A stretch of 64,000 bases of DNA from Candidatus Woesebacteria bacterium (GCA_016432365.1 CP066686.1:1002918-1066917); one strand, 5' to 3'. Numbered from the stretch's first letter, positions 3,426 through 64,000 are shown. The notes: a model not told the origin generated them from the letters alone. Numbers and translations are program-made.

Positions 3426-3893
3426 TTAATCAAAAGTAACTGTAGTCTGTTGAATTAAGTTTATCCCGTCGATAGCAGCCTGAATTATGTAAACTCCCGT
3501 AAAAGACGCGGAGGAAATATCAAACGTCGCCCTTCCTTGAGCATCTGTAACGGGCTGGACTTCTGCAACCTGCAATGAATTACCTCCTCCGACAACAACT
3601 TTTTTACCGGATATTCCCAAACCCCGGTTATCTAAAATGAAAACGGTAATTCTAATCTTTTCTCCACCCGTTTTAGCTCTTAGAGGTGAAGCAAATATAT
3701 ACGAATTTTCCAAAGATAGACTCTGAACACCACGGGACTCTGTAACCGTAGACGAAGAAAACGCAGAGCTTCTAAATATAAGAGGACTTCGTATTGAAAA
3801 TAAAATAACAATTAGCGCAATAAGTAAGATAACAATTATGATAAGGGTGTAAACTGCATACCTTGGCCACCTGGGCGATCTGTCTTCGTTCAT
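3426..3893 (-). CDS. Small membrane-anchored protein with Ig-like (Big_1/invasin-like) domain
   Basis: N-terminal TM YTLIIIVILLIALIVILF. C-terminal VVVGGGNSLQVAEVQPVTDAQGRATFDISS...YIIQAAIDG resembles bacterial Ig-like domains. Confidence 0.4.
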   Translation of the reverse strand: MNEDRSPRWPRYAVYTLIIIVILLIALIVILFSIRSPLIFRSSAFSSSTVTESRGVQSLSLENSYIFASPLRAKTGGEKIRITVFILDNRGLGISGKKVVVGGGNSLQVAEVQPVTDAQGRATFDISSASFTGVYIIQAAIDGINLIQQTTVTFD

Positions 3894-4441: not shown

Positions 4442-4954
4442 ATGTCTGATAATTTAATAGATTCTACCAGAAATAACTTCATAAAATACTTGAGTTCTCT
4501 TGGTCTATCTCCTAAGACCCACAAAAATTACAGAAGTGATCTCGGCCATTTTATAAGCTGGCTAATTTTGAGGGTCAAGTCACTCGGTTCTTACGTCACA
4601 ACTTTGACGGAGGCTGTCCCCTTCATGAATAAAAATATTGTCTCTGAATACAAATCGTATTTGATTGAAAATAATATTCCGGCAAAAACAATTAACAGGC
4701 GTCTCTCTACCCTACGGCACTTAACCAAATATTTGGCTATTTCGAACTTAATTTCCACAGATCTTATGGGTGGAGTGGAAAACATAAGCGACGGGATAAA
4801 AGTGATAAAAAACACATCAGATCCTCTCATTGACGAGTTCCGGGCACATCTTGAGACTGAAAAGGTTTCCAAAAACACAGTTAAAAATTATGTTAGTGAC
4901 GTCCGGCAATTTTTATCTTGGCTTGAAGCTAATCAAAAAAATCTTAACGCTTAG
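4442..4954 (+). CDS. Tyrosine-recombinase N-terminal core-binding (Phage_int_SAM-like) domain protein, no catalytic domain; ends at an in-frame TAG
   Basis: SPKTHKNYRSDLGHFISWL plus PAKTINRRLSTLRHLTKYL match both halves of the XerD core-binding (CB) domain (NTLNAYRRDL..WL / ATSSARLLSAVRRLFQYL). A third repeat, SKNTVKNYVSDVRQFLSWL, is the first half of a second CB domain. No catalytic R-K-H-R-H-Y domain. Confidence 0.55.
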   Translation: MSDNLIDSTRNNFIKYLSSLGLSPKTHKNYRSDLGHFISWLILRVKSLGSYVTTLTEAVPFMNKNIVSEYKSYLIENNIPAKTINRRLSTLRHLTKYLAISNLISTDLMGGVENISDGIKVIKNTSDPLIDEFRAHLETEKVSKNTVKNYVSDVRQFLSWLEANQKNLNA

Positions 4955-4969
4955 TTATTAATTTATCTT

Positions 4970-10900: not shown

Positions 10901-11785
10901 ACAGGAGCAGAGATGGCTGCAATTGATTCATTTGGCAATGCCACCTTTTCAGGAACAGTTAACAGTCAACAGTTGGCAGTAAACAGTGAAGCAACAATAT
11001 CAGGAACATTATTTGCAGATAACATAAAATCAAAAAGCCTCGATGAAATTCAAACACTTTTAACAAAAGTGCAGTCTGATCAGAACCTATTAAAGGATTC
11101 TCAAAGCTGGAATACTCATACTGCAACAAACTCAGGTACACTTGCTGGTATTTCCGCCAGTGACCTGTATATAACCAATCAGGCCGCAATTAATTCACTG
11201 TCTGTCTCAAATAGTATTGCAGTAGGTTCCGATCTGATTTTCGGTTCTTCAGTCAATAGTATAAATACTTTATCTTCCCCTCTTGAAATCCAAAATCTTG
11301 CAATGGCACCTGTAGAAATCATGGCCGGCCTGGTTAGAATTGACACTCACGGAAATGTAGATATCGCCGGAAACTTGTTTGTTGCAGGTGAAGTTAGATC
11401 GAAAACAGGGTTCAAAGTTCAAGATTCAAATTCCAATAACGTGGCCTCGATTGATGCAGAAGGAATCGGCAACTTTAATTCAGTTTCCGCTACTCAATTT
11501 GTAATTGCAGCCGGAGTAGACGCAACTAACTCTTCAACAATAAACGGAGTTATAACAACCAATGCAACAGCAGGTTCTGCAACTATTGCATCTGGCATCA
11601 CAGAAATAACTATCAAAAATCCAAAGGTTACCGATTACACACTAATCTATGTAACACCAACCTCTTCGACAAACAACAATGTACTTTATGTCAAAAGTAA
11701 GCAGATAGGAGAATTTGTAGTCGGATTTGCAAACCCGATAGACGTCGATGCAATGTTCAACTGGTGGATCGTACAAATACAATAA
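4970..11785 (+). CDS. Giant (2,271 aa) single-pass surface protein: cytoplasmic CB-domain remnant, TM helix, beta-helix/fibre-like repeats, Gly-rich low-complexity region, C-terminal domain
   Basis: N-terminal SSPATAKRKIVSLRKFLDWA is the second half of a CB domain. TM YLNIAILVILSSALGLGIY. Long T/N/G/S-rich repeats include GNVGIGTTAPNVPLEIN, a tail-fibre-like motif. Gly runs at aa ~1380-1690. Same reading frame as 4442..4954. Confidence 0.7.
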   Translation: MSSLPTILPKVIKAYQTEIARNSSPATAKRKIVSLRKFLDWAKGKGLIDVNLEETILAQTKNETKIPAKNALNVRLQNIRNLYKRYRNIPGTSYLNIAILVILSSALGLGIYNQFFKNATNPFAATSLVRPNRYLSFQGRLTNQFLNPVTAVTSVVFTLYDAASSGTTLWTGTCNVTPDTDGVFSTLLGSDCGSEISSSVFSDNASVWLGVKVAADAEATPRIQIATVAYALNSETLQGYPASSSATINTVPVVNNSGQIVLAVSSPKIQSTTGTFAIEGQAITIQTPSASNGNVTIAPDGTGQLNLTFTGASPGSGTGMVNATDANLTSGSLYYGSVASNASGYNLLQLQSGSSLTNKFVVDSAGNASASGDLTLAGTSSIQTTTFSPLTIGGNTTGNIVLSPSNDIAGGNISPNVTNVTDLGTSSKLFRNIYGTTIYQGANQVCDAGGSVPGCASGINYWGQALGALYPLNNTTDLLIGATATTSAKFAFKNVLTGTPTASISGTTNIATFIDGNGNISSTNRNNLTLGNSSTYNTTGNILLNPNGTGNVGIGTTAPNVPLEINRDSAAAVQEIVRLSNGGAGFGTGSRISFANAGTLNQAYVESGLYNGGGLDGYLAFGTGSSGSAAEVARFDATGKFGIADTSPVSLFTVGNGDLFQIDSTGRVVNIDGVAHSIDDVSGDLTLTSNSTSVAIADDLAVNGATSADITSSTTTASLFNSTVTTLNIGGAATTLNLQGASAATLSIGNANTTTALNLSSGTGDVAISSTDLITLFPTNNVRIGNATDYASFGSAGDITFVDADGAASITGPAGGAFSVLAGASQALTLTGNAASVWSTTGGLTLRTTSGNVLVDTATAGDVTIGPDVSLGTGDDLFLQDGTLTAAVPLTVADTALNAGLTQGIIDAINDVYDLTSGSTNYWQLNTLTLSPANNTYDLAIGGTATASAKFQAFALEKAGDATSRLAKLNSSLITTGTLFEATASAITSGNMIKLGQGGNSAFSGNGIWMDFDNTGGGGGTFTGNFLKFDNATTTKFIVDASGNLGGAGVGQFGSTTVTTYSRFGSATTGHALSSASDLLVSGKLELNDTLFLDGGTIANSAGTGTITFSTTPTTSSNALSASNWLIENTANVGQAALIVNQQKGGDLFTASASGTPKFTISNTGVLTLANNETIDNTTDGTVNVGATTFKLTGGTTVVSDQATVALFNTTTTSLSLGGAATTLNMLGAGSATFNIGNATGTTALNLTSGTGSQTFTSSVATGTGLAGAFVYKDAVLTTGDMIYATASAITSGNIMKLGEAGPQNFTGNGLYMDFDNTGGGSFTGNFVKLDNAGAEKFKIDSSGNVHIYGNLTCDGNCADTKLETFVNSGTYTLPSDATMIIVEGYGSGGGGGGGSQGTTAQYRGGGGGGGGGAYVTDTFPAASVSATVAITVPAGGAGGGSLTDGTAGSSSSFGSYLTAYGGGGGGNNGATGGGGSGGGGGGRTGVGGSSVDDVNGAGGSPNGGALAADAIYSDGGAAGGDAASGTNGSTGGSAYVGGGGGGAATTTGQNQSGHGGSSLHGGGGGGGGATAQAITCLLKDGGNGGSSNNYANLGVGGAAGGTGAGGAGTNGSALAGYGGGGGGGGANICASGTGGAGGNGGAPGGGGGGGGAAAAASGTTGGTGGTGARGEIRVWTISSNAADLAEIYTSNDISLEAGDVVALDSSLKAGVKKTTNTYEDETLGIVSTRPNLVIGDAIKEGNNVVPVALAGRVPVKVTAENGPIVAGDKLTSSSIPGVAMKATKTGITVGTAMSDFNGVEGEIGRVTAFVNTSYTPGMLLHNLLSENGYDIPEEVWRSNNIDYSWIVLATLVSESKKLTSSQISEIYGDRVAATLEVIAPRIVAKSIYAGEINATESGSLVINAVNTIIDGLITAKNIVVKNIVAGAIEVNDLIAQNITSKIFKVQIITPLPDQTDIAVRLGSEATPSGKFAIQDVTGAEMAAIDSFGNATFSGTVNSQQLAVNSEATISGTLFADNIKSKSLDEIQTLLTKVQSDQNLLKDSQSWNTHTATNSGTLAGISASDLYITNQAAINSLSVSNSIAVGSDLIFGSSVNSINTLSSPLEIQNLAMAPVEIMAGLVRIDTHGNVDIAGNLFVAGEVRSKTGFKVQDSNSNNVASIDAEGIGNFNSVSATQFVIAAGVDATNSSTINGVITTNATAGSATIASGITEITIKNPKVTDYTLIYVTPTSSTNNNVLYVKSKQIGEFVVGFANPIDVDAMFNWWIVQIQ
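9120..9990 (+). repeat. GGT/GGA glycine-codon low-complexity tract inside the giant gene
   Basis: Repeated ggtggaggtgg units encode GGGGGGG runs. The antisense strand gives a spurious Pro-rich ORF. Confidence 0.6.
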
Positions 11786-29401: not shown

Positions 29402-29536
29402 CTAGGTTCGATAGCGCTCCTCGCGACTCGAAAATTCTGTAAGAATTGAGACCAAGCGAGGCAAGATATATGAATCAACGATTCATATTCCGCCCGAGTC
29501 CACCCCAAACACACCCATTGACAAGGTTGCACCCTG

Positions 29537-31636
29537 TCACTCTGATATTGCACTTAGACCACCCCAATTGGTAACCACCCACAAGTTCTTGCCGACAAGA
29601 AAGTCGGCTACGTCTTTACTGAGAAGCCCATCAGACGGTCCATAGAGCTTGTAGGAACCGGTTTGCGGATCGTAGCTGATTAACCCCCTGTTGGATGTAA
29701 TCCAAAGTTTGGAGTGAGCAAATATTAGTTTTCCGAATACCGGATCGCTCACCGAGTCAAAAGGTGAATAATTAGCTTCTAAAACCGGTGGTGTCAGGGT
29801 CTTGGTATTTCCACTTGCTATGTCGGTTTCCACAATCTTATTTTCAACATTTTTCCAACCTAGATTTCCGTTTGTGACAACGCCCGTACAACCGTCATCT
29901 CCGAATTTGTTGCCGTTTGTTTTGTAAGTATAGACGCGGTTACAAAAAGATACTCCGTTGGTAACAAATTTGTCGGCTCCTGTGGGAATGTCAGTAGCAA
30001 GACTCCACCCGCTCGTGTTTATGTCATAAACAATATATTTGTCAGTTCCATTGTCTGTATAGCTAAACCCGATTTTGCCGTTTTTAAAATCGCGCCAGGA
30101 TGGAGATAGCGAATTATAAAAAACTCCTCCCCCAAACCCTTTACTTGTAATTGATGAAACAACCGGAGGAGGTAAAGAAAGTTCTTTTACAGTTCCGTCG
30201 GCGTAATTATAGATATATGAAAAAGGCTTCTCACATCCTTGTCCACAAACCTGACGGAAGATAAATACGTCAGTGGTACCTGGAATCGGTTGAAATAACG
30301 GCATACTAAAATTGCCATTAAAACCGCTTAAATTATATAAAATGGATATAAATTTACCTTGTTCTAAAGAATACTTGTAAATACCTGCGTTTGTATCCAA
30401 AACCGGCTCTTCGTCAATTAGTGCAAGAACTTGTCCAAAGGCCTCCGGCCTGTCTTTTAACTGATAGCTTGAAATCTGTTTTGATGTTAGATCCAAGACG
30501 TTTATAAATTTATCCGCCTTGTTGAAAACACTAAACCATAAAATATTTCCTGTAGATTTATATAAAATATTGGGATTTTCTTTTCCAAAATCGAAAAGGG
30601 TCTCCGTCGTCTCTGTGTCCGGATTAAACTTATAAATTTTACTACCGGAATAAACAAGAATGCCATCCGAGACGGTGTTTTTGAGAAGTCTGACAACACT
30701 AAAATCCGTCGTCAAATCTTTTATAATAAAACTGCGGGGAGGTTCGATCTTTCTCCAGGACGCATCAGCATTCTCATCTATTACAAATAACTCTTTATCG
30801 TCAGAAACAAATACCTGATTACCAAATGCCGAGATTGAATTAAAGTCCGTTCTTGCATATTGATCTGTCCTTCCAAAATCACCCGGCTTAAACGCTTTGA
30901 AAGTTCCACCAAATTTATCGAATCTGATTACTGCCCCGCTACTATAGACACTGGCTACTTCCAAAAAATACACATATTTATCGGTAACCAACATGTTAAC
31001 CACATTCCTTTTTTCGGCTTCAGCGTCAAGTTCTGAAGTGTAATTAGTAAGAGTACCTTTATTCGGATCAAGCAAGCTCACTCCGTCAAAAGTGGCAACC
31101 CAGATTTTATCGCCGTCCGCCGCCAATTCGATATTGGCCCCGTTGACCAGACCTTCCTTAACACCTATTTTTTTTGCCTCCCGGGTTTTAAGATTAAAGA
31201 CACTCACCCCGTCCTGTGTGCCGATATATAAAATGTCCCCTCTTTTGATTATGGAATTGGCTGTCGCATCCCCCATTCCTTCGGCTACACTTATCTGGTC
31301 GCGCACTTCACCTGTCTTTTTATCAAGCACTAATACACCTCCAAGACAACCGACATAAAGCAAGTCTCCTTCTTCAATAACTTGTCTCTTATCTTCGCAG
31401 TTAATCCAATATTTGGGCGTTTTAAAATTAGCTTGACCCGAAGAAGGAACACCGCCAACTGTCTTTATTCCCTTTTTAAAAATCAAAAAATAATAACCTG
31501 CTATCGAAGCTACGATTATAAAAAATATCAATACTATTCCCCAAATAATTTTACTTTTGGAAGGTGGAGGGGTAACGGGCACTTGAACAGGTAGAGTTTC
31601 TTGTAGACCGGGATCAACTATCGGAGCTTGCTCCAT
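29537..31636 (-). CDS. Membrane-anchored beta-propeller repeat protein
   Basis: N-terminal TM. Repeated GD(L/I)LY(V/I)G..GV.V(F/L) blades resemble two-component-regulator-propeller or PQQ-like repeats. Confidence 0.45.
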   Translation of the reverse strand: MEQAPIVDPGLQETLPVQVPVTPPPSKSKIIWGIVLIFFIIVASIAGYYFLIFKKGIKTVGGVPSSGQANFKTPKYWINCEDKRQVIEEGDLLYVGCLGGVLVLDKKTGEVRDQISVAEGMGDATANSIIKRGDILYIGTQDGVSVFNLKTREAKKIGVKEGLVNGANIELAADGDKIWVATFDGVSLLDPNKGTLTNYTSELDAEAEKRNVVNMLVTDKYVYFLEVASVYSSGAVIRFDKFGGTFKAFKPGDFGRTDQYARTDFNSISAFGNQVFVSDDKELFVIDENADASWRKIEPPRSFIIKDLTTDFSVVRLLKNTVSDGILVYSGSKIYKFNPDTETTETLFDFGKENPNILYKSTGNILWFSVFNKADKFINVLDLTSKQISSYQLKDRPEAFGQVLALIDEEPVLDTNAGIYKYSLEQGKFISILYNLSGFNGNFSMPLFQPIPGTTDVFIFRQVCGQGCEKPFSYIYNYADGTVKELSLPPPVVSSITSKGFGGGVFYNSLSPSWRDFKNGKIGFSYTDNGTDKYIVYDINTSGWSLATDIPTGADKFVTNGVSFCNRVYTYKTNGNKFGDDGCTGVVTNGNLGWKNVENKIVETDIASGNTKTLTPPVLEANYSPFDSVSDPVFGKLIFAHSKLWITSNRGLISYDPQTGSYKLYGPSDGLLSKDVADFLVGKNLWVVTNWGGLSAISE

Positions 31637-52897: not shown

Positions 52898-52919
52898 TTC
52901 TATTTCAAGGTATTGTTCT

Positions 52920-53035
52920 GGCGATGAGATATTTTCGCGGTAGGTTGCCCCACAACTATCGTCTCCGCTGACCCGTTTCACTTCTGTGTTCGGAAAGGGA
53001 ACAGGTGGTACCAGGTCGCACAAATCACCAGAACA
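52920..53035 (-). rRNA. rrf: 5S ribosomal RNA
   Basis: Reverse complement matches the conserved 5S core: CGTTTCACTTCTGTGTTCGG...AGGTGG...CCAGG. Confidence 0.7.
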
Positions 53036-53289
53036 ATAACTTGAAAACAGAATTTAATTTTCTTGCAAGAAAATTAAACCTGGTTCTCTAATTTTTCAGA
53101 AGAAAAATTAGCAAATATCTTTTTTTAAGAAAAAGGCCGCGTCCCACTTATGTGAGGGATCGCAAGAAATCGACCAATTCGCATTAGTAGCCTTAATCCC
53201 TTACGGGACTTCCAGCGCTAACCGATTAACCCGATATTCTGTCGGGGGTCTAACGATACTTTCGTATCAGGAATCCTAATCTCGGAGGC

Positions 53290-53322
<33 letters not shown>

Positions 53323-53500
53323 GTTGGGAATGTAGCTACCCGGCGTTACTGCTGATGCAATAACCGGCACACCAGGGATTCCCCCAGGGAGGTCCTCTCG
53401 TACTGTCCCCAGCTCTCCTCAAGATTCCAACGCTTCTACAGGATAGAGTCCGACATAATTGTTTTAAACCCTGAACACACTCCTGTGTTTCAGGGACCTA

Positions 53501-53974
53501 CGATCGCTCGTAGGATCCGACTATATCTTTCCCTCATAGCCCTTTAGGGCGACGTGGGATTTGGCGTATAGTCTGTGAGGATTCCATAATAAAATCAAAA
53601 ATTAAAAATCAAATATCAAAAATGCAGATTGGAACTTTTGTCCCAATATTTACTTTTTAATATTTTATATTTGATATCACTATGGTCTTTCCTGCTGATT
53701 GTCCGCAGTTGCGCATTTTTACCACTTTTTAAATGGTAGTGCAACATACACCGGATTTTCCAGCAAATAGTCCCACTTCACTCTTCCGAGTTTCGTGGGA
53801 GCCGCCGTAGCCTTTCAGCGTAGGTGGCCCAAATTTATTTCCTGAACTGGTATCAGGATTCTATAGGTATAACAAAATATACTAAACCTCTACTTTCTAG
53901 TAAAAACTAGAAATGATTCACAACGTTGTATAGAAAGACAGCTTAGATTGTCAGCACAATATGTTAATGTGCTC
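53501..53974 (-). mobile_element. About 470-nt insertion in 23S at the conserved ...GTCGTGAGACAGTT | (T)AGGTCCCT junction: putative ORF-less group I intron
   Basis: Flanking exon sequences are contiguous in E. coli and Bacillus 23S. Upstream exon ends in T, and the insertion ends in G. Contains an AT-rich hairpin-like segment at 53575..53700. No ORF of 60 aa or more. Confidence 0.4.
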
Positions 53975-54009
<35 letters not shown>

Positions 54010-54477
54010 TCACTTTAACGGGCGAACAGACCGACCCTTGGCACCTTCTTCAGCGCCAGGATGTGATGAGCCGACATCGAGGTAGCGAACCGCGCCGTCG
54101 CTATGGACGCTCGGGCGCGACTACTCTGTTATCCCCGGGGTAGCTTTTATCCATTAAGCTCCGTGCACACCCATTGTGCATCGGAGGATCATTAAGACCT
54201 AGTTTCCTACCTGCGCGGGATGTATCCCTTGCAGTCAAGCTGGCTTAAACCTTTGCGCTTTACCCACCGTTTCCATCGGTGGAAAGCCAACCTTTGTGTC
54301 CCTGCGTTACATTTTGGCAGGGTACCGCCCCAGTAAAACTGCCCAGCAAACACGTTTCCCCTCGCCGTCTCCAGGCGAGTAAAGTAAGCTTCACATTTTC
54401 CAACGAGTGGTATTACATATTATGACGAATCTCCCACCTATTCTAGACAATCAAAAAATATGAAAGCAATGTCTACT

Positions 54478-54508
<31 letters not shown>

Positions 54509-55481
54509 ATGTAGAAGTAGGCCGCGTCTTCACAGCCATCGCTATTTCGCCGAGTAAACTCTCAAGACAGTTGCTAGCTCGTTACGCTATTCATGCGGGC
54601 CAGAACTCACCTGGCAAGGAACTTCGCTACCTTAGAACAGTTATAGTTACTGCTGCCGTTCACCGGAGCTTCAATTCAGAGCAATTCATCTTGCGACAAG
54701 CCACCCCTCTTCTTAACTTACCGGCACTGGACAAGCGTCAGCCCGTATACTTCGACTTTCGTCTTTGCACGGACCTGTGTTTTTGGTAAACAGTCGACTA
54801 GCAAACTTTCGGTGCCCCCCTCATAGCCTTACGGCGACGTGGGGAACCCATCTCCCAAAGTTACGGATAGTTTTTTTGCCGAGTTCCTTGAGAATTTGTC
54901 TCTCGATCACCTTAGGGTACTCCCCCAGTTCACCTGTGTCGGTTTGCGGTACGGCTTAGTTTGACTCTCGCTGCGAACCTTTTCCTGCAAACTGAAACGT
55001 TCAGAATCCCCCATCTCGCGACAGAGTTTACATGACTGCTCGATTAAACATACTGCGGGATTTTCCACACAATACTGTCTTGCAGCTTGAACCCAAATTC
55101 AATAATGGGCCCTGATTTTCCAATTTGGTCAATCCCCAGCTTATCCTTGCGGATTTTTCGATTCAAACCAAATAGTAGAATTTTGACTACTCTTCCATCG
55201 ACTACGCCAATATGGCCTCGCCTTAGGTACCGACTAACCCACTGTGAACGAATCTTGCAGTGGAAACCTTGAACATTCGGTGCTACCGATTCTCACGGTA
55301 ATTGTGCGCTACTCAAGCCGACATTCTCACTCCCGACCGCTCCACCATGTCTTACAACACAGCTTCACCGCTGTCGGAACGCTCCCCTACCACTCCGTCA
55401 TAATAAATTATGACAAAATTTCTAGCTTCGGCATACAACTTATCCTCGATAAATCTTGGGCGCACGCGCCCTAATCGACCA

Positions 55482-55538
<57 letters not shown>

Positions 55539-56104
55539 TTTCGGACACGTACTTCCTTTTAAACTTAGTTGTAATTTAGAGGCCTTAGCTGAAAATCTGG
55601 GTTGTTTCCCTTTCGACATATCAGCTTAGCCCGATATGTCTGTCTAGTATGATAATTAACGTTAGTATTCGGAGTTTAATTGAGTTGAATTGCTTGCGCT
55701 CTCCAACCCATCTAGTGCTCTACAGCCAACATAACTTTACATACCACGGTCCCTATAGACCTTTCGGGGAGAACCAGCTATCTCCAGGTTCGTTAGGTAT
55801 ATTGCCACTAACCACAAGTCGTCCCATGTCATTGCAACGACAACGGGTTCGGGCTTCCACAGATATTTCTATCTCCTTCACCCTGCTCATGGTTAGCTCA
55901 CCTGGTTTCGGGTCTGATCTAATTTTCTTTTCGCCTTTTAAGACTTGGTTTCCCTACGCCTCCCCAAATAACTTGGTTAGACTAGAAAATTAAAACAACT
56001 CGCCGGCTCATTCTTCAATAGGCACGATATCATCCTTTTAAGGGGACTCTATCGGATTGTTCGCAAACAGTTTCAGGTTCTATTTCATTGAGTGTTTCAC
56101 TCAG

Positions 56105-56141
<37 letters not shown>

Positions 56142-56330
56142 CTCTCTCATCTTATTTAGTCTTGGAGGATGGTTCCCCCCGTTTCCCACAGAATATGTGT
56201 TCCGTGGTACTTAGGAAATCCCTAGAGGCAAAATTAGTTTAATATACGAGGCTTTCACTCTCTGTGGCCGGCAATTCCATACCGTTCTACTACCAATTTT
56301 ACTCTCACATCGGGCTCCTGCAACCCCCCC

Positions 56331-56467
56331 ATGCACAGCACACGGAAATCAAAAGTTAAAATTTAAAAATCAAAAATACAAGTTAAAATTCAAAAGTTTT
56401 TATTTTTACTTTTGAATTGCACTTTTGCATTATGACTTTTGCTTTTTGAATTCCTTGTGCTGTGCAC
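56331..56467 (-). repeat. AT-rich hairpin insertion/expansion in 23S domain I, bounded by ATGCACAGCACA / TGTGCTGTGCAC inverted repeat
   Basis: The 107-bp A/T-rich core is homologous to the intergenic element at 32781..32893. Confidence 0.45.
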
Positions 56468-56481
56468 AAAGGTTTAGACTG

Positions 56482-56513
<32 letters not shown>

Positions 56514-56861
56514 TCGCTTGATTTATATTCCTCGCCCTACTGAGATGTTTCAGTTCGGGCGGTTCCCACATTAGCCTTTATAACATTCCTTGCGGAACAC
56601 ATTTGGAGGCTAAGTTTCCAGCAAAGCTGGAAGGGTTTCCCCATTCGGACACCGTCGGATCAATGGATCGTGGCTCCTACCCGACGACTATCGTGACCAT
56701 GTACGTCCTTTTTCGGAGATGAGAAGCAAGGCATTCACTGTCTGCGTTTCTTACTCTTGCGATCCCACACATCTCTTGCACATCAAGAGATTGGGACGCG
56801 ACCTTCTTCTTAAAAAAATATTTTCAAATTTTAACGTTCTATTTTCCGCCGCTAGACGGAT

Positions 56862-58261: not shown

Positions 58262-58304
58262 CAAAAAAGGCGGGGCCTAATCAAAATGATTTTGGCGCCC
58301 GCCT
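58262..58304 (-). terminator. Conserved intrinsic terminator T1 (family of four)
   Basis: Minus strand reads GGCGGGCGCCAAAATCATTTTGATTAGGCCCCGCC followed by T7-8, directly after the stop of 58343..58864. Confidence 0.6.
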
Positions 58305-58342
58305 GGTTTACTTTAAAACTTTCTTTTTCCTGCAAGACCTTG

Positions 58343-58864
58343 CTACTCATTACAGTCCGGTACTTTAAACCGTGTCTCAAATCCAACTGTTGAATCCGGA
58401 CTCATTAGGGCGCGAAGTGTGTAAACACCCTCGGAAAAGTCCTCAGGAATGCCTGTGATAGCATCTGTCATTCCACCCTTAAGGACAAAGTTGTCCGCTG
58501 TGTCTTTGATGTACGCCAGAAAAGTGACGAACCCATGGGAAGACTCCACCACTAAATAGTAATTTCTCAATTCCGGCGGAAGATTTGTAATTATAACCAG
58601 CGCGATCTGCTGATATGGGTTTACACTGGAATACACACAGGACACCGTAATTTGTGGGCTGGCGACCCGATCAGAGTTTTGAGTAACTGCGGCTTCTGTG
58701 GAATTTCCATTGACAATAACTACGTCATACTCCACATAGGCGGATTCGCTTACAACTTCTTGTCGTGTTGTCTGCCCACCTGCAAACAGGACTATCAAGA
58801 TGGCAGCTAAAAATAACACCGTCAAGATTAACAGTCTATTTAAAATGCTAGAGTTCATGTTCAC
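58343..58864 (-). CDS. Small N-terminally anchored extracytoplasmic protein (array unit A, gene 4)
   Basis: TM LLILTVLFLAAILIVLFAG. Preceded by hairpin/Shine-Dalgarno element H1 and followed by T1. Confidence 0.5.
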   Translation of the reverse strand: MNMNSSILNRLLILTVLFLAAILIVLFAGGQTTRQEVVSESAYVEYDVVIVNGNSTEAAVTQNSDRVASPQITVSCVYSSVNPYQQIALVIITNLPPELRNYYLVVESSHGFVTFLAYIKDTADNFVLKGGMTDAITGIPEDFSEGVYTLRALMSPDSTVGFETRFKVPDCNE

Positions 58865-58942
58865 TCCTTCCGAGAAATTTGATTAGGAGCAGAATCCTTG
58901 CTTGGTAACTTACCAGCAGTCAAGGCCTTGCTCCTGAAAGTG
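58865..58942 (-). repeat. Intercistronic hairpin plus Shine-Dalgarno element H1
   Basis: Fills the whole gap from the stop of 58943..59482 to the next ATG. Terminal inverted repeat GGAGCA..TGCTCC encloses CAAGGCCTTG and TTGGTAAxTTACCAA palindromes. GGAAGGAG lies 7 nt before the ATG. Confidence 0.55.
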
Positions 58943-59482
58943 TTATTGGTACACACACCCCTCAGGCGTTACAGAACTATAGAACTCGTAGATATACACC
59001 GGGCCCACAATTGATGGCAATGCGCTCATCCCGTATGCGAAAAGGCAAAACTTCGCGTTCTGTGGTGCCAGGCGGACCCAAATTTTATCGGGTTTAAGGC
59101 CTGCCGGCGGCTCATAGGCTGTCAGTAAATCTCCGTCTGCGTTGAGGAAATAGATCGTCGAATCTTCAGACGCTCTATACCAATTCGAGTCCGAACGTTG
59201 GTGACTCGTCTGATAACTCACGATCTTTCCGTTGTGGAATTGCAATTCAACATAGACAAAAACCGGCAGATCGTACTCAGCCCCCAATTCGACCAAGGCT
59301 TCGTCTTCGGTCAAGATAAACGCTGCCTCAGGAGGTAATTGTGCCAAGGCACCTTGCCACCTGGCTATCATTTCGAGGTCTTTGATCTGATCAGAGCGGA
59401 CGCTCAAATCAGCAAGAACCAAAATGACCGACAAAAACAATGTTCCAATTGCGATCTTAGTGATAGATACGCCTTTGTTCAT
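58943..59482 (-). CDS. Small N-terminally anchored extracytoplasmic protein, paralog of 61210..61752
   Basis: TM IAIGTLFLSVILVLADL. Similar length and motifs (W..L.Q.P, YL.P) to the unit B first gene. Confidence 0.5.
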   Translation of the reverse strand: MNKGVSITKIAIGTLFLSVILVLADLSVRSDQIKDLEMIARWQGALAQLPPEAAFILTEDEALVELGAEYDLPVFVYVELQFHNGKIVSYQTSHQRSDSNWYRASEDSTIYFLNADGDLLTAYEPPAGLKPDKIWVRLAPQNAKFCLFAYGMSALPSIVGPVYIYEFYSSVTPEGCVYQ

Positions 59483-59573
59483 TTTTCCTCCAGAAAAATT
59501 TAAATATTAGGAGCAGAATCCTTGCTTGGTAACTTACCAACAGTCAAGGCCTTGCCCCTTTGAGTTTATTCGA
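59483..59573 (-). repeat. Intercistronic hairpin plus Shine-Dalgarno element H2 (TTTAAATATTAGGAGCAG variant)
   Basis: Same core TTAGGAGCAGAATCCTTGCTTGGTAACTTACCAACAGTCAAGGCCTTGCCCC. Confidence 0.55.
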
Positions 59574-59795
59574 TCACAACTGCCTCAAAATCTCGGCTAC
59601 TTTGTCATTCAAATCAGGTATTTCCAGAGAACTTGCGCTTTCCAACTTTTTATACAGACTTTTTAGTCTGGATACCAAATACAGTCTGTGCAAGATCAGA
59701 AAGATTATAAAACCACCCACTAAAAGAACCGTGGCCAAAAATGGGGTTGCCATTACTTCCCCAAAATCCGGACGATCCAAGAGATGTGCAAACAT
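59574..59795 (-). CDS. Tiny single-pass membrane protein (73 aa)
   Basis: TM FLATVLLVGGFIIFLIL. GGAAGGAGG Shine-Dalgarno sequence upstream. Plus-strand ORF 59560..59883 rejected. Confidence 0.4.
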   Translation of the reverse strand: MFAHLLDRPDFGEVMATPFLATVLLVGGFIIFLILHRLYLVSRLKSLYKKLESASSLEIPDLNDKVAEILRQL

Positions 59796-59871
59796 GAAAG
59801 CCTCCTTCCAATATCACGAACTTCCCGACACGCCGAGCCTCTCGGAGTTGTTCTTGCAAGGCCTTGCCAGA
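59796..59871 (-). repeat. Divergent intercistronic hairpin element (variant)
   Basis: GGCAAGGCCTTGCAAG palindrome plus GGAAGGAGG, at the same relative position as H elements. Confidence 0.3.
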
Positions 59872-60309
59872 TTAAGGTTTTAGAACCTTTTTCAGAGCTT
59901 CGACTCCTGTGATATATTCTGGATTAATTACCAGATCCGGCAAAATCTTTGAAATTTCAACCAATCGTCGATAGCTTTGGAGATAAACTTTCAAATCAGC
60001 CATCATTTCTCCAACAGACATGCTCTCGACAGTAGCTTTGTCACTACTCTTAGCACGAATCGTTTCCATCCTTCGATTGATTTCGTCCCATTCGCGCTTA
60101 AGCCTGATTTCCCGATCTATGCCTATTTTGAAGGCAAGACGTATAAACAAAGCGCACAGGCCCAGCGCTGTTAAACCCAAACCTGCACAAAATATAGCAA
60201 TGCCAAAATGTTTGGTGGAAAGAAAATTTACAACGTTGACCAAACTACCAATTGCGGTCATGAGGGCGAAAAACGCAGCCCCTAACCAAATATAACCACT
60301 TGGTTTCAT
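59872..60309 (-). CDS. Small two-TM membrane protein (array unit A, gene 1)
   Basis: Two hydrophobic helices, then a charged coiled C-terminus. Confidence 0.45.
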   Translation of the reverse strand: MKPSGYIWLGAAFFALMTAIGSLVNVVNFLSTKHFGIAIFCAGLGLTALGLCALFIRLAFKIGIDREIRLKREWDEINRRMETIRAKSSDKATVESMSVGEMMADLKVYLQSYRRLVEISKILPDLVINPEYITGVEALKKVLKP

Positions 60310-60550
60310 TTTTTCTCCTTGAATTTATGGGGTATACAACAAACAGTCCCACATGGGACTGGAAAATAAAGAAAGTTTTAAACGTTAATGTACAGTCGGC
60401 AGGATACCACATTTGAAGCTAAAAGTCAAATACTATAGGGGCGCAGTCCCGCAGCGTATAAGTCTTTAAAATAGCATGCAGACCCCGTATTCACGCTATT
60501 TCGACGCAAACACGCAGTATTTGGGAACAAGTAAGTTCTATGCTGGGGCC
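60310..60550 (-). promoter_or_regulatory. Repeated promoter-leader module A: TTGACT-17-TATCCT plus conserved 5' UTR hairpin CAGTCCCATGTGGGACTG
   Basis: -35 at 60414-60419 and -10 at 60391-60396 (minus strand). About 200 bp homologous to 61753..62035 and 63469..63685. Confidence 0.5.
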
Positions 60551-60593
60551 AAAAAAAAGGCGGGGCCTAATCAAAATGATTTTGGCGCCCGCC
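60551..60593 (-). terminator. Conserved intrinsic terminator T2
   Basis: Same GGCGGGCGCC...GGCCCCGCC-T8 sequence as T1. Confidence 0.6.
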
Positions 60594-60597
60594 AGTA

Positions 60598-60819
60598 CTA
60601 ACCTAGAAACATAAAAACCAACATCAGGATGCCTGAAACAATCGCCACCACTATCATTGTGGGTATGAATACATTCAGCATCTTGTTTACTTTCGATCTC
60701 AGTTGTCGCAACGGTACGCCAGGCATTAAAAGCCTGTATACCAGTGGGGACATGGCAATTCCCAAAACCAGCACCAAGAGGCTGATCCAAAAGATCCAAG
60801 AAAAGATCGTAAGAGCCAT
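60598..60819 (-). CDS. Tiny two-TM membrane protein (73 aa)
   Basis: Hydrophobic throughout. H3 element immediately upstream. Confidence 0.45.
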   Translation of the reverse strand: MALTIFSWIFWISLLVLVLGIAMSPLVYRLLMPGVPLRQLRSKVNKMLNVFIPTMIVVAIVSGILMLVFMFLG

Positions 60820-60901
60820 TTTTTCTCCTTCCGAGAAATTTGATTAGAAGCAGAATCCTTGTGTGGTATGAAAACCATAGTCAAGGCCTTGCCCCATTGA
60901 G
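60820..60901 (-). repeat. Intercistronic hairpin plus Shine-Dalgarno element H3
   Basis: Conserved ends. Apical part changed to TGTGGTATGAAAACCATAG while still self-complementary. Confidence 0.55.
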
Positions 60902-61120
60902 CTACCAATCACGCCGAGCCTTATCGAGCTCTACTTTCAAGGCTGCTTTCAAGGTCGGATCTTGCTCGGCTTCGTATTTTTTTTGCAATTCGATCTTTTT
61001 GTCGGTCGCCTTTATTTGCCCCCGAATGAGACGGAACATGAAAGCGAAAAACAAAATGCCAAAAAAGATGATCGGGTACAGCGGATCACAAAAATCGATT
61101 GATTGTGGGGAAAAGTTCAT
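60902..61120 (-). CDS. Tiny single-pass membrane protein (72 aa) with K/E-rich tail
   Basis: TM IIFFGILFFAFMF. Family with 62813..63013 and 62140..62307. Confidence 0.45.
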   Translation of the reverse strand: MNFSPQSIDFCDPLYPIIFFGILFFAFMFRLIRGQIKATDKKIELQKKYEAEQDPTLKAALKVELDKARRDW

Positions 61121-61209
61121 TTTCTCTCCTTCCGAGAAATTTGATTAGGAGCAGAATCCTTGTGTGGTATGAAAACCATAGTCAAGGCCTTGCCCCATTG
61201 AATAGTCGT
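61121..61209 (-). repeat. Intercistronic hairpin plus Shine-Dalgarno element H4
   Basis: Near-identical to H3. Confidence 0.55.
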
Positions 61210-61752
61210 CTAGAAGTCACAACCGTAACTAAACGATTCCCCTTTTGTCCAAATCTGAACAAAAGTCAATCCGCTTTCAAGACTGTAAGTCTCGACTTTT
61301 ACCACATTACGATACTCACAGTTGGGTACATCGTCGGGACTGAGATAGACAAAAAGATCGTCTGGTCCACCCGACTCAAACTTGTATGACCCAAGAATGT
61401 TTCCATCTTCATCGGCATACCAAAGTCTGCCGGGGATTTTAGCGATGGGCCAAGCCTCTGCCTCAAGGGCGTAGTGGTGCATCGGACTTAGGACTGCGGT
61501 TCCATTGTCGACCACGATCACTTCGTCCGAGTCATTGATAGGGATTTTGTACTTCTGCCCCAACTCGATACTGTCGAGATTTCGAGTCAGAATCATACCC
61601 GAGCCGGTAGGAACTTGATTCAAAAAACTGTTCCACTTAGCCAACTTGTCTAGCTCATATTGCTTGTGCTCCAAGCGGATAAATCCCAAGGATGCAATAA
61701 ACAAAATTGCCGCGGCCAATATCAATGGTAGACTTCCGTTTCGATATTGCAT
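61210..61752 (-). CDS. Small N-terminally anchored extracytoplasmic protein (array unit B, gene 1); start moved to Met-19 of the track ORF
   Basis: The upstream 18 codons of ORF 61210..61806 overlap the conserved leader. GAGAGGAGAAAAC precedes MQYRNG. TM LILAAAILFIASLGF. Confidence 0.5.
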   Translation of the reverse strand: MQYRNGSLPLILAAAILFIASLGFIRLEHKQYELDKLAKWNSFLNQVPTGSGMILTRNLDSIELGQKYKIPINDSDEVIVVDNGTAVLSPMHHYALEAEAWPIAKIPGRLWYADEDGNILGSYKFESGGPDDLFVYLSPDDVPNCEYRNVVKVETYSLESGLTFVQIWTKGESFSYGCDF

Positions 61753-62035
61753 GTTTTCTCCTCTCGAGAATTTGAATAGATTTGATGGATACAACGACAG
61801 CCCCACATGGGACTGAATAAGAAAGTTTAAAGCGTTAAAGTACGAGTAAAATGCCCTTTTTTAGAGCCTGCCATGATACCACATCTGAAGCTAAAAGTCA
61901 AATACTATGGGTACCAGAGCTAAAGCTCATAAGTCTTTAAAATAGCATGCAGACCCCGTATTCACGCTCTTTCGATGCAAACACGTAGTATTTTGAGAGA
62001 AAGTAAGTGTAATACTGGGGTCAAGACTACAGGAC
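61753..62035 (-). promoter_or_regulatory. Repeated promoter-leader module B: TTGACT-17-TATCAT plus conserved leader hairpin
   Basis: -35 at 61896-61901 and -10 at 61873-61878 (minus strand). Leader contains CAGTCCCATGTGGGGCTG. Upstream about 90 bp are conserved across copies. Confidence 0.55.
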
Positions 62036-62061
62036 ATGTACCAGCCCCGGTACATGTTTCA
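62033..62061. promoter_or_regulatory. Palindrome GGACATGTACC-AGCCCC-GGTACATGTTTC (copy 2) just upstream of promoter module B
   Basis: Same 9-bp half-sites as 42128..42154. Confidence 0.35.
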
Positions 62062-62095
62062 CTCCACCGGCAGGTACAAGCTTCATTCTACCAAA

Positions 62096-62139
62096 AAAAA
62101 GGCGGGGCCTAATCAAAATGATTTTGGCGCCCGCCTGGT
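62096..62139 (-). terminator. Conserved intrinsic terminator T3
   Basis: Identical core to T1 and T2. Abuts the stop codon at 62140. Confidence 0.6.
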
Positions 62140-62307
62140 TTACTTTGAAACTTTCTTTGAATCTGGTTTGTATAACCTGTCCAGGTCAATATGGATTTTT
62201 TCCAGAGTGTCATTAATCACTCTCAACCATGAACATATCATACTGGCACCAACCACGATGCCAAAAAAAATGACCAAACCAGCGATGATTAGACCGACAA
62301 TCTCCAT
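62140..62307 (-). CDS. Tiny single-pass membrane protein (55 aa; below ORF-track cutoff)
   Basis: Minus-strand translation is MEIVGLIIAGLVIFFGIVVGASMICSWLRVINDTLEKIHIDLDRLYKPDSKKVSK. Preceded by H5 and followed by T3. Confidence 0.45.
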   Translation of the reverse strand: MEIVGLIIAGLVIFFGIVVGASMICSWLRVINDTLEKIHIDLDRLYKPDSKKVSK

Positions 62308-62410
62308 TCTTCCTCCTTCGGAAAGAATTTAAATATTAGGAGCAGAATCCTTGCTTGGTAACTTACCAACAGTCAAGGCCTTGCCCATATGAGTCCAGTT
62401 GACAGCCTGA
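62308..62410 (-). repeat. Intercistronic hairpin plus Shine-Dalgarno element H5
   Basis: TTTAAATATTAGGAGCAGAATCCTTGCTTGGTAACTTACCAACAGTCAAGGCCTTGCCC variant. Confidence 0.55.
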
Positions 62411-62734
62411 TCAATCCTGAATTTCGATGTATATCGGCCTGTCAAAATCAAATGGTTTCAACACCGTTTCGATACCAAACAAGGACAGTGTATCAAAAAG
62501 GACAACCTTGTACGGATCGCCTACTTCGATAACCGCAATCAGTTGATTGTTGTCATCTTTGATTGCGACCAGATATGAACCATCGTGACCTGGAATTGAA
62601 AGTGTGTGTCCGGTTTCGGCCACCTCGGCATGCCAATCGAAAGATTTCAGCAGCCTTCCGGCTTGTCTCAGGTAATCGACCAATATAAACCTTTTGGTCA
62701 GGCGACCTATACGTCGAACGTAGAATGTAGCCAT
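62411..62734 (-). CDS. Small soluble protein ending ...IYIEIQD, paralog of 63741..63983
   Basis: Shared VAETG/VAETD and C-terminal (F/Y)IEIQ motifs with the unit D gene. Confidence 0.45.
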   Translation of the reverse strand: MATFYVRRIGRLTKRFILVDYLRQAGRLLKSFDWHAEVAETGHTLSIPGHDGSYLVAIKDDNNQLIAVIEVGDPYKVVLFDTLSLFGIETVLKPFDFDRPIYIEIQD

Positions 62735-62812
62735 TTTTTCTCCTTCCGAGAAATTTGATTAGGAGCAGAATCCTTGCGCTCTAAAGCTTTCAAGGCCTGC
62801 TCCTAAAAAGGT
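62735..62812 (-). repeat. Intercistronic hairpin plus Shine-Dalgarno element H6
   Basis: Perfect terminal inverted repeat TTAGGAGCAG...CTGCTCCTAA. Middle replaced by a GCGCTCTAAAGCTTTCAAGG palindrome. Confidence 0.55.
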
Positions 62813-63013
62813 TTATGTTTTTGCACGAGCCTCATCAAGGCTTTTTTGAATATCTTTCCGCGCCGTCTCTCCAGCTTTCTCAAGCTGTGATTCCAACCGT
62901 GGAATCACAATGAATTTCAAATAAATTTGATAGCCGAAAACCGAAAAGACCAGGAGAGTTCCCAATACAGCCATGATCATAAAGACTGGGGCCATTGCTT
63001 CGTCAAATCCCAT
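62813..63013 (-). CDS. Tiny single-pass membrane protein (66 aa) with K/E-rich tail
   Basis: TM VFMIMAVLGTLLVFSVFGY. Confidence 0.45.
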   Translation of the reverse strand: MGFDEAMAPVFMIMAVLGTLLVFSVFGYQIYLKFIVIPRLESQLEKAGETARKDIQKSLDEARAKT

Positions 63014-63099
63014 TCTTCCTCCTTTGGAAAGAATTGAATGTTAGGAGCAGAGACCTTGCTTGGTTTAAACCAACAGTCAAGGCCTGCTCCTATGATTGT
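63014..63099 (-). repeat. Intercistronic hairpin plus Shine-Dalgarno element H7
   Basis: TAGGAGCAGAGACCTTGCTTGGTTTAAACCAACAGTCAAGGCCTGCTCCTA. Apex GGTTTAAACC keeps the palindrome. Confidence 0.55.
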
Positions 63100-63468
63100 C
63101 TATTTCATGATCTGCCCGTACGGAATGGGGTCAAACCAGTCGAGGCTGTAAAAACCCGTGTGACCATCCATGAACAACACCTTTGCGACATTTTCGTGAA
63201 TCGAAAGAATCACGACCGGTTCGCCCGGGGTGTAGACATACTCGCCCAGATATTCCTGCGTAGGATTCTGGGTTTCAGCCAAGGCTGAACTTACATACAC
63301 AGTTTGGCCAACCACGGGCTCAAAAATCGGTAGGTCAATACCAGACCCGACCTTGAAGCCGATGTTAAGGCTGACGATGCCAACGATGGTCATCACCAAC
63401 CCGGCGAAGACGAACATGACCAACTGATTGCGCAATTTAATGCCTGGATCTTCAAATTGAATTTCCAT
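63100..63468 (-). CDS. Small N-terminally anchored extracytoplasmic protein (array unit C, gene 1)
   Basis: TM LVMFVFAGLVMTIVGIVSL. Preceded by promoter-leader module C. Confidence 0.5.
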   Translation of the reverse strand: MEIQFEDPGIKLRNQLVMFVFAGLVMTIVGIVSLNIGFKVGSGIDLPIFEPVVGQTVYVSSALAETQNPTQEYLGEYVYTPGEPVVILSIHENVAKVLFMDGHTGFYSLDWFDPIPYGQIMK

Positions 63469-63685
63469 TACTTATTCTCCTTTGAATTTTGAATTTGATG
63501 GATACGGTAACAGCCCCACATGGGACTGATAAATAAAGAAAGTTTAAAGCGTTAAAGTACGAGTAAAATGCCCTTTTTTAGAGCCTGCCATAATACCACA
63601 TCTGAAGCTAAAAGTCAAGTTATAGGGTATCCCAGTTCCCCCAAATTGTTTCTTGGAGCCAAAAAATTGGCATATATTTTTTAAA
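63469..63685 (-). promoter_or_regulatory. Repeated promoter-leader module C: TTGACT-17-TATTAT plus conserved leader hairpin
   Basis: -35 at 63613-63618 and -10 at 63590-63595 (minus strand). Leader with CAGTCCCATGTGGGGCTG. Confidence 0.55.
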
Positions 63686-63734
63686 ATAAAAAAGGCAGGC
63701 ACCTAACCACAAAAATGTGATTTTGGCGCCCGCC
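63686..63734 (-). terminator. Conserved intrinsic terminator T4 (variant left arm GGCAGGCACC)
   Basis: Same loop CAAAAATGTGATTTTG-like palindrome and A/T run. Follows the stop of 63741..63983. Confidence 0.5.
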
Positions 63735-63740
63735 TAGTAC

Positions 63741-63983
63741 TTACTGAATCTCAATGAAAACCACCCTATTGGACAACAGTCCCTCGACCATATCCACAAT
63801 GAACCGGTGTGCCGATGTGTCAAACAACAAGATCTTGAATGGCTGATCCTCAGGGATAGCTGCAATCAACTTGCCCTCTTTTGTCTTGATTGTCAACGAC
63901 AACGGTCTATCCGTTTCGGCAACCCGAATGGAATCTCTGAATCCGTCTTTTTGGATCTCATAACCGGGAAACAGCCAGGTCAA
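63741..63983 (-). CDS. Small soluble protein ending ...VFIEIQ (array unit D)
   Basis: Paralog of 62411..62734. Confidence 0.45.
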   Translation of the reverse strand: MTWLFPGYEIQKDGFRDSIRVAETDRPLSLTIKTKEGKLIAAIPEDQPFKILLFDTSAHRFIVDMVEGLLSNRVVFIEIQ

Positions 63984-64000
63984 ACCGAAAATGTGCTCAA

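Follow-up and report, generated by a model that had tools for sequence, protein, structure and literature searches.

A repeated intercistronic element, here called H, was found in a 64,000-nucleotide stretch of DNA from a Candidatus Woesebacteria bacterium (GCA_016432365.1 CP066686.1:1002918-1066917; the window), where it occupied seven of the eight internal gene junctions of three complete operons (A, B and C). H is a real, previously undescribed and lineage-restricted intercistronic repeat. It was composed of a three-helix hairpin of 44-51 nt, an A/U-rich spacer and a small hairpin presenting the Shine-Dalgarno (SD) sequence of the next gene. Six further copies in three related uncultured populations brought the total to 13, all from a few related groundwater Woesebacteria. 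The 3′ half of the hairpin was near-invariant, and the 5′ arm showed a one-sided, mostly wobble-compatible drift. H is tentatively read as a sequence-specific, cis-acting mRNA hairpin that would insulate, process or stabilise each cistron, and we infer that its active form is RNA rather than DNA and that it is processed or bound. A preliminary description of this DNA had proposed a conserved intercistronic hairpin whose function was indicated by covariation; the hairpin and its conservation proved real, the covariation argument did not hold, and roles at the RNA level stayed the most plausible.

The seven copies in the window were located, as first described, in the exact stop-to-start gaps of consecutive open reading frames (ORFs) on the minus strand. 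The true start of H1 was placed at 58859, since the ATG at 58858, and not the GTG at 58864, fits the SD sequence. The 18-mer TTAGGAGCAGAATCCTTG with up to three mismatches gave seven matches against 0.08 expected, all on one strand between 58.8 and 63.1 kb. A covariance model built from the copies recovered the same seven with scores of 52-78 bits (E 1e-10 to 5e-17) and no further copy in the whole 64 kb. The copies and the sole internal junction without a hairpin were as follows.

H1, 58859..58942, minus strand: hairpin 58884-58934 and SD tail, between the 179-aa and 171-aa genes; 75 bits; -21.6 kcal/mol, z -3.1
H2, 59483..59573, minus strand: hairpin 59508-59558 and type-2 tail, between the 73-aa and 179-aa genes; 77.5 bits
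H3, 60820..60901, minus strand: hairpin 60845-60895 and tail, between the 72-aa and 73-aa genes; 68 bits; 3′ arm variant UGCUUCU, giving one extra G·U pair
H4, 61121..61209, minus strand: hairpin 61146-61196 and tail, between the 180-aa and 72-aa genes; 71.6 bits; 98% identical to H3
H5, 62308..62410, minus strand: hairpin 62337-62386 and type-2 tail, between the 107-aa and 55-aa genes; 69.9 bits
H6, 62735..62812, minus strand: hairpin 62760-62804 with a short GCU/AGC apex, and tail, between the 66-aa and 107-aa genes; 52.1 bits; -21.4 kcal/mol, z -3.7
H7, 63014..63099, minus strand: hairpin 63042-63091 and type-2 tail, between the 122-aa and 66-aa genes; 62.5 bits; -24.7 kcal/mol, z -4.0
Junction without a hairpin, 59796..59871, minus strand: an SD sequence and GGCAAGGCCTTG, left over from the 3′ end of a 72-aa-type gene

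In the junction at 59796-59871, 45 nt matched the 3′ end of the coding sequence of the 72-aa gene (60899-60943) with 71% identity. The matching stretch was out of frame with the 145-aa ORF, a hint that a gene was frameshifted or fused. The preliminary description had left out this junction, as well as the arrangement of the region in three or more operons, each with the repeated promoter, leader and terminator.

On the coding strand, the stop codon of the upstream gene was followed by 5-22 nt, the 5′ arm of the outer helix P1, (A/U)GG(A/G)GCA, the unpaired A?GG, the 5′ arm of the inner helix P2, CCUUG, and a tip of 14-20 nt. The 3′ side contained the P2 arm CAAGG, the unpaired AUUC, the P1 arm UGCUCCU, the tail and the AUG. 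P1 was 7-9 bp long, P2 5 bp and the tip helix 3-7 bp, and together, separated by internal loops, they amounted to 16-21 bp. The inverted ends AGGAGCA or GGGGCA with TGCTCCT, the GGAG before every ATG and the four apex types were all as originally reported, and the inner CCTTG/CAAGG pair was also present in the copies. Folding each copy in the minus-strand orientation, which the preliminary description had called for, gave stable hairpins of -18.5 to -24.7 kcal/mol that were better than shuffled sequences (z -2.3 to -4.0).

The tail had the form AAUCAAAU-UUCUC-GGAAG-GAGAAAAA, or a variant, AAUAUUUAAAUUCUUUCC-GAAGGA-GGAAGA. By direct reading and by folding, it formed a small second hairpin, UUCUC-GRRAG-GAGAA, with most of the SD sequence in its loop. 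The two versions of this hairpin, UUCUC/GAGAA and UUCUUUC/GGAAGAA, differed by a matched 2-bp insertion on both sides. The distance from the end of P1 to the ATG was 26 nt in five of the seven copies and 29 and 30 nt in the other two, and GGAG stood 5 nt from the ATG in all of them, whereas the distance from the stop codon to P1 varied between 5 and 22 nt; the geometry was fixed towards the start codon and free towards the stop codon. The tail was the same module as the 3′ part of the operon leaders (AUCAAAU...UUCUCGRRAGGAGAAAA-AUG), which was also preceded by a hairpin. The SD hairpin was found in the tails of H1-H7, in the leaders and in four contigs of relatives (L012, L014, L018 and L019), and because it was kept in relatives that lack H, it is older than H.

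The distribution of H was narrow. An exact-pattern scan of 185,579 species genomes returned one related metagenome-assembled genome (MAG), CAZBTH01, from groundwater. Although its label is Gammaproteobacteria, it shares the promoter, leader and terminator with the window, together with a gene that is 84% identical in DNA. Two of its four copies (L001b and L002b) were located after the last gene and before the terminator, with no gene following. The same scan of Joint Genome Institute metagenomes gave one contig, a duplicate of L002, and detected no H in viral contigs; four viral matches of a 17-mer were chance matches that the covariance model rejected. No match to H was obtained in phage and plasmid collections. 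In Rfam nothing reached the gathering score, and at E values up to 10 a single chance match was obtained at 21.5 bits against a threshold of 55 bits. Word-indexed protein searches returned the paralogues of the query alone, and an exhaustive profile search with the 179-aa family returned about 12 full-length relatives, leading to contigs L012-L021. Two more populations carried H, at 988-1036 of L018 and 659-708 of L019. No H was present in L012-L017, L020 and L021, where the junctions were 7-30 nt long with a bare SD sequence or the tail alone. The same promoter and SD tail recurred in the contigs of relatives, usually with a leader hairpin (none was evident in L013). L015 was syntenic with the window, its operon adjoining the same 73-aa gene, tRNA and 23S rRNA, and had no H. 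The patchy occurrence among relatives indicates that H is an optional, lineage-restricted module. Contigs L004-L007, which carry P0002 and come from several groundwater samples, all stopped within the repeated leader, some 230 nt before the 185-aa gene. Since assemblies break at these repeats, copy numbers in MAGs are probably underestimated.

When the copies were aligned, the hairpins were about 80% identical column by column. The claim that structure was conserved while sequence co-varied was contradicted, as not one pair had changed on both sides among the 13 copies. In an alignment of 11 copies, 91% of cells were paired and the covariation score was 0.061, against 0.057 for shuffled alignments, again with no two-sided change; with 13 copies from at least four populations, 89.9% of cells were paired and the scores were 0.074 and 0.070, respectively. 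The preliminary description had itself named a lack of covariation beyond chance as grounds against its argument, and this outcome counts against a functional hairpin being shown by covariation. It had also presented the apical variants as different palindromes. Three of the four types in the window shared a UGGU/ACCA stem core, whereas the GCU/AGC type was truly different and was limited to H6 and L001a; a stem of at least UGG/CCA was common to the tips of 11 of the 13 copies.

The changes that did occur were unevenly placed. The 3′ half, CAAGGAUUCUGCUCCUAA, was unchanged in 10 of the 13 copies, the other three carrying single substitutions, and P2 was invariant except for one G·U. The 5′ arm of P1 existed in six versions (AGGAGCA, AGGGGCA, UGGGGCA, AUGGGCA, AGGGGCG and AGGGAUG). 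At five of the one-sided stem substitutions the coding strand could still pair, as G·U or U·G: A/G in the 5′ arm of P1, GCA to GCG, C to U in L019, UGCUCCU to UGCUUCU in H3, and CAAGG to UAAGG in L001b. Mismatches on the coding strand were seen at two positions, a G to A change in L019 and an A·C in the apex of H3 and H4 (apex b). The coding strand folded 0-4 kcal/mol better than its complement. This strand evidence is suggestive and not decisive, because the tip of H3 and H4 paired better on the other strand.

The hairpin in the operon leaders behaved differently. Its stem read CAGUCCC/GGGGCUG, CAAGCCC/GGGUUUG or CAGACCC/GGGUUUG in several of the leaders compared, which were those of the window and of L012, L014, L015, L018 and L019. 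Its five alignable versions were 100% paired and contained two pairs changed on both sides, with a covariation score of 0.357 against 0.155, which was reached by 24 of 500 shuffles. In L014, L019 and L015 a hairpin of entirely different sequence stood at the same place (the three stems being CAAGCUCA/UGAGCUUG, AGGCAC/GUGCCU and GUCCAA/UUGGAC). Compensatory changes across relatives indicate that RNA structure has been selected in these leaders. H was conserved as a sequence, especially in its 3′ half, which argues for a sequence-specific partner, for homogenisation between copies, or for both; selection for any stable hairpin fails to explain its conservation. The same transcripts therefore hold an internal contrast between a leader hairpin that evolves by compensatory change and an H whose sequence is invariant on one side. 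The leader hairpin of operon C was followed by UUUGUUGUAU and was called terminator-like; it could be an attenuator or a 5′ stabiliser.

As a cis-acting mRNA element, H would join a stem-loop to the standard translation-initiation module of this operon family (A/U-rich spacer, SD hairpin and AUG), and internal cistrons would receive the layout that the operon leader gives to the first cistron, namely a hairpin, a spacer and an SD hairpin. The stem-loop would most likely act as an insulator between cistrons, as the site of an endoribonuclease or an RNA-binding protein, as a barrier to exonucleases, or as both, which would leave the small ORFs individually stabilised and translated, irrespective of the adjacent ones. 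All 13 copies were co-oriented with the genes and lay inside promoter-to-terminator transcription units, which supports this reading, as do the fixed geometry to the start codon, the tail shared with the leader, the stable folds and the wobble pairs on the coding strand. The compensatory changes in the leader hairpin further indicate that RNA structure matters in these transcripts, and the copies after the last gene in CAZBTH01 fit a function at the 3′ end of the preceding cistron rather than in translation alone.

Several observations weigh against the mRNA element. Without a compensatory change in 13 copies, the comparative data are no proof of a selected structure. Were H a stabiliser by structure alone, drift and covariation like those of the leader hairpin would be expected, and yet CAAGGAUUCUGCUCCUAA was nearly invariant. 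Two of the apices, TTGGTTTAAACCAA and GCTTTAAAGC, were perfect palindromes through the centre; an RNA hairpin needs no such symmetry, and this points to events at the DNA level. Apex b, as noted above, favours the non-coding strand, and relatives manage without the hairpin, with short junctions and bare SD sequences.

Bacteria of the candidate phyla radiation (CPR) are uncultured, and almost nothing is known of how they control gene expression. The locus is a compact, modular expression system in which one promoter, one leader, one terminator and one intercistronic unit of hairpin and ribosome-binding site are reused around fast-evolving small membrane proteins with a possible role in contact with host cells. 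Should the hairpin prove to be specifically processed or bound, it would offer a natural insulator for operons and a means of identifying its protein partner.

Judged by analogy, the closest functional counterparts of H would be the RNase III hairpins of phage T7 early mRNA, followed by mRNA stabilisers of the repetitive extragenic palindromic (REP) type. The intercistronic RNase III sites of T7 have the format of a 16-21 bp helix with an internal loop; the hairpins of the early mRNA have similar sequences and lie between cistrons, and after cleavage the upstream message is protected by a hairpin at its 3′ end. H likewise recurred between the cistrons of a single transcript, in copies of similar sequence, as a hairpin that spans about two helical turns and is interrupted by an internal loop, and P1 (7-9 bp), P2 (5 bp) and the tip (3-7 bp) made up an interrupted, intercistronic helix of about 20 bp of the RNase III type. 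H differs from the T7 sites in its host, a CPR chromosome, in its fixed distance to an SD module and in its nearly invariant 3′ half, and its cleavage is putative. The REPs and bacterial interspersed mosaic elements (BIMEs) of enterobacteria and pseudomonads likewise occupy transcribed gaps between genes as short imperfect palindromes and are known both as stabilisers of the upstream mRNA and as recombination hot spots, but REPs are dispersed in hundreds of copies, often as inverted pairs, with a REP-associated tyrosine transposase (RAYT), whereas H belonged to one operon family in a single orientation. No RAYT (HUH Y1) transposase was detected among the window ORFs scanned, and the model search of the 64 kb placed copies at 58.8-63.1 kb alone, in one orientation.

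The Correia elements of Neisseria and other miniature inverted-repeat transposable elements (MITEs) share with H the terminal inverted repeats that form an mRNA hairpin when co-transcribed, and Correia hairpins are cut by RNase III and alter the expression of neighbouring genes. Correia elements are 100-150 bp long and scattered in both orientations with TA target duplications; H showed no target duplication and carried a built-in SD sequence. The copies of H lacked flanking direct repeats, had a single orientation and occurred only at the stop-to-SD junctions of one operon family, and H falls under neither the REP/BIME nor the MITE definition. Hairpins that act as 5′ stabilisers or hold the SD sequence, such as the ompA leader and RNA thermometers of the fourU type, resemble H in the hairpin upstream of the ribosome-binding site and the small helix containing part of the SD sequence, but they are single leader elements, and H was internal and repeated.

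Fairly unlikely, in our estimate, is the reading of H as a functionless repeat, in which a junction hairpin arose once, was multiplied by tandem duplication and was kept uniform by gene conversion; it may have been a terminator that lost its U run as single-gene units fused, the proteins having diverged fast and the SD tail alone being functional. The lack of covariation would be expected of such a repeat. The copies were mosaics of two 5′-arm, five apex and two or three tail types in nearly all combinations, neighbours shared an apex (H3 with H4, H1 with H2), and the apex type tracked neither the upstream nor the downstream gene family. Mosaic copies, shared tips of neighbours and the gene relic are consistent with exchange between copies by recombination or gene conversion. 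Partial copies and gene relics at junctions and the absence of the hairpin from comparable junctions of relatives point the same way. Template-switch mutation at DNA hairpins can yield perfect central palindromes, and those of the two apices fit it. The 5′ half, AGGGGCAAGGCC, also resembled the terminator stems of relatives (AGGGGCAAGTGCC), to which the model gave weak matches, but this resemblance was non-significant (best shuffle p 0.03-0.06 before correction). The element persisted, moreover, in at least four populations in which the proteins of the family were only 24-44% identical, and seven of the eight junctions in the window kept it intact. Conversion alone does not predict an invariant 3′ half with a drifting 5′ arm, and it cannot bring a hairpin to junctions without upstream homology. 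Much less credit is given to a translational switch, a highly doubtful reading in which the 3′ arm UGCUCCU is an anti-SD sequence for the downstream AGGAG, masked by the 5′ arm until P1 is melted, for example by a ribosome terminating upstream, and the freed anti-SD closes the next ribosome-binding site. The CUCCU of the 3′ arm stood at a fixed 17-21 nt from GGAG, the tails of H1 and H2 folded alone paired GCUCCU with AGGAG, and forcing the first 16 nt open led to the same pairing in H1 and H3. A functional 3′ arm with a merely complementary 5′ arm would also fit the asymmetry. In H2, H4, H5, L018 and L019, however, the stop codon was 12-34 nt from P1, so that a terminating ribosome would leave P1 closed; the forced-open folds of these five copies were unchanged, and a ribosome-driven anti-SD switch was rejected as a general mechanism. 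The alternative helix had 5-6 bp (about -6 kcal/mol) against about -20 kcal/mol for the hairpin, and two copies had no downstream SD sequence at all; the 3′ arm and the SD sequence were both constant, so covariation between them would not be visible. The least probable reading, to which we give hardly any weight, takes H for a leaky transcription terminator or a pause hairpin by which expression would be graded along each operon. A stable G+C-containing stem was followed by an A/U-rich stretch (UAAUAUUUAAAUU in H2 and H5), and the weak likeness to the terminator stems of relatives applies here too. But the stem was not directly followed by a U run (CUCCUAAUCAAA), clear T runs marked the genuine terminators of these operons, and the terminator scan did not call the hairpin; as an intrinsic terminator, with the stem leading into AAUCAAAU or AAUAUUUA, H was rejected. 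Two other candidates were discarded as well: an internal promoter (TTGACT in P2 and the apex), which had no -10 element at usable spacing and a negative promoter scan, and a short ORF from a UUG inside the hairpin, whose frame and stop varied between copies.

Recombination at the DNA level was weighed together with the attC-like organisation that had been proposed for the array. H would then be a folded single-strand recombinase site with non-canonical cores, or a homology patch of about 80 bp, and units of a gene plus H would be excised as circles and reinserted, shuffling small genes among operons; this is distinctly unlikely. As with attC, an imperfect palindrome followed each small ORF in a one-directional array, with an outer 7-bp box, an inner 5-bp box, an asymmetric unpaired spacer (AGG versus AUUC) and a variable tip, and the non-coding repeat was far better conserved than the ORFs it separated; integron arrays without an integrase are known as clusters of attC sites lacking integron-integrases (CALIN). 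Gene order varied, the 179-aa family being first in operon B and L001 and third in operon C, and the 72-aa gene was enclosed by the nearly identical H4 and H3. In CAZBTH01, H stood after the last gene as if part of the upstream ORF, putative toxin-antitoxin gene pairs occurred among the units of L002, and the contigs broke in repeats. Only the general geometry of attC was shared, however, as length, strand and conserved extent all differed. A regular-expression scan detected the canonical cores GTTRRRY/RYYYAAC in none of the seven copies ±10 nt on either strand, in agreement with the preliminary description; the ends were AGGAGCA/TGCTCCT, and the nearest sequence to a core was GTTAGGA in H7, with one mismatch. 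At 44-51 nt, H was shorter than the 57-141 bp quoted for attC, its bulges cannot be equated with the extrahelical bases of attC, and its conservation ran through the SD sequence to the next ATG and did not stop at a crossover point. The units carried their own promoters and terminators, and presence/absence variation was not observed between contigs of different samples. The folded strand of attC is the bottom one, whereas H had G·U pairs at five stem positions on the coding strand that become A·C on the bottom strand, which is weak evidence, as one apex showed the opposite. The reported absence of intI from the window was upheld: a Pfam scan of about 60 ORFs of the window detected no catalytic domain of a tyrosine or HUH recombinase. 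The search for a tyrosine recombinase or IntI, which covered the 64-kb window while the upstream end of the array lies beyond base 64000, returned a single integrase-related ORF of 170 aa with an N-terminal SAM-like domain only, at 4442-4954, 54 kb from the copies of H. H does not fit the definition of an integron attC site, and a palindrome after every ORF of an array is insufficient to call a site attC-like. That H is the recombination site of an integron-like cassette system of the CPR, with other cores, an unknown recombinase or recombination by the repeats alone, and the ribosome-binding signal of the next cassette included, is the sole striking reading; it is also the one most weakened by the tests, and is very improbable.

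The genes joined by H belong to an array on the minus strand, where all genes between 58.2 and 64 kb are located. This part of the window comprised at least four transcription units, three complete and a fourth running off the window, and each had the repeated promoter (TTGACT-17 nt-TATCAT, with TG upstream), a leader of about 110 nt that includes the hairpin CAGUCCCAUGUGGGGCUG, 2-4 small ORFs and the repeated terminator, a long hairpin with a clear T run. The features of the array were located as follows.

Small-ORF array, 58343..63983, minus strand: 12 ORFs of 55-180 aa, most with an N-terminal membrane helix
Operon A promoter (TTGACT-17-TATTAT with TG) and leader, 63469..63627, minus strand: leader hairpin 63511-63528; SD tail the same as in H
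Operon B promoter and leader, 61753..61910, minus strand: leader hairpin 61798-61815
Operon C promoter and leader, 60310..60440, minus strand: leader hairpin 60344-60361
Operon A end, repeated terminator module, 62095..62139, minus strand
Operon B end, repeated terminator module, 60553..60597, minus strand
Operon C end, repeated terminator module, 58263..58326, minus strand: hairpin 58269-58303 and T run
CAAGGTCTTGC before the operon C terminator module, 58320-58342, minus strand: possible relic of the 3′ half of H
Fourth operon end, variant terminator, 63688..63740, minus strand: operon extends beyond the window

No Pfam family was matched by the small-ORF proteins. Some of them formed paralogue families with 23-35% identity, and the proteins flanking the copies of H were either unrelated or paralogues at only this level. 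The 179-aa protein encoded at 58943-59482 was identical to HYV90_05940 (NCBI) of a Candidatus Woesebacteria bacterium MAG, and the AlphaFold model of its family had a predicted local distance difference test (pLDDT) score of 44.6.

Further repeated sequences were observed around the transcription units. A 70-nt block, 93% identical between 60453-60522 and 61924-61993, stood between an operon terminator and the promoter that follows it, for operons B and C only. Another hairpin, CATGTACCGGGGCTGGTACATG, stood near 62030-62075 with the motif GTCCTGTAGTCTTGAC, which was also found upstream of promoters in L001 and L012. In L002, the palindrome GTGTGACAGGGTCG(C/G)ACCCTGTCA at 2720-2743 and 3740-3763 bracketed one promoter-to-terminator unit, and one degenerate copy of it was located at 29519-29539 of the window, beside tRNA-Ala(CGC). 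A second motif, CTTTCGACAGGCTCAG, followed the terminators in L001, L002 and L003. Between two small-gene units of L002 (1383-2725), two gene pairs resembled toxin-antitoxin modules. In one, genes of 87 and 128 aa overlapped, and the L004 counterpart of the 128-aa gene had a PIN domain; in the other, the overlapping genes were of 92 and 96 aa.

Elsewhere, the window contained the genes for 23S rRNA (53930-56761, minus strand), 5S rRNA, two tRNA-Ala, ribosomal protein S1, RadA, Rho, TatC and a sortase. An ORF of 2271 aa began 15 nt after the 170-aa integrase-related fragment (together 4442-11785). It had a glycine-rich domain as its sole Pfam match and spanned the part of the window with the highest G+C content (0.51 at 8-10 kb). 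Truncation or interruption of the recombinase gene is possible. The rRNA unit at 52916-56761 comprised tRNA-Ala, 23S and 5S genes without an adjacent 16S gene, the place of which was occupied by the small-gene array, and its 23S-5S spacer of about 900 nt held no ORF longer than 43 aa.

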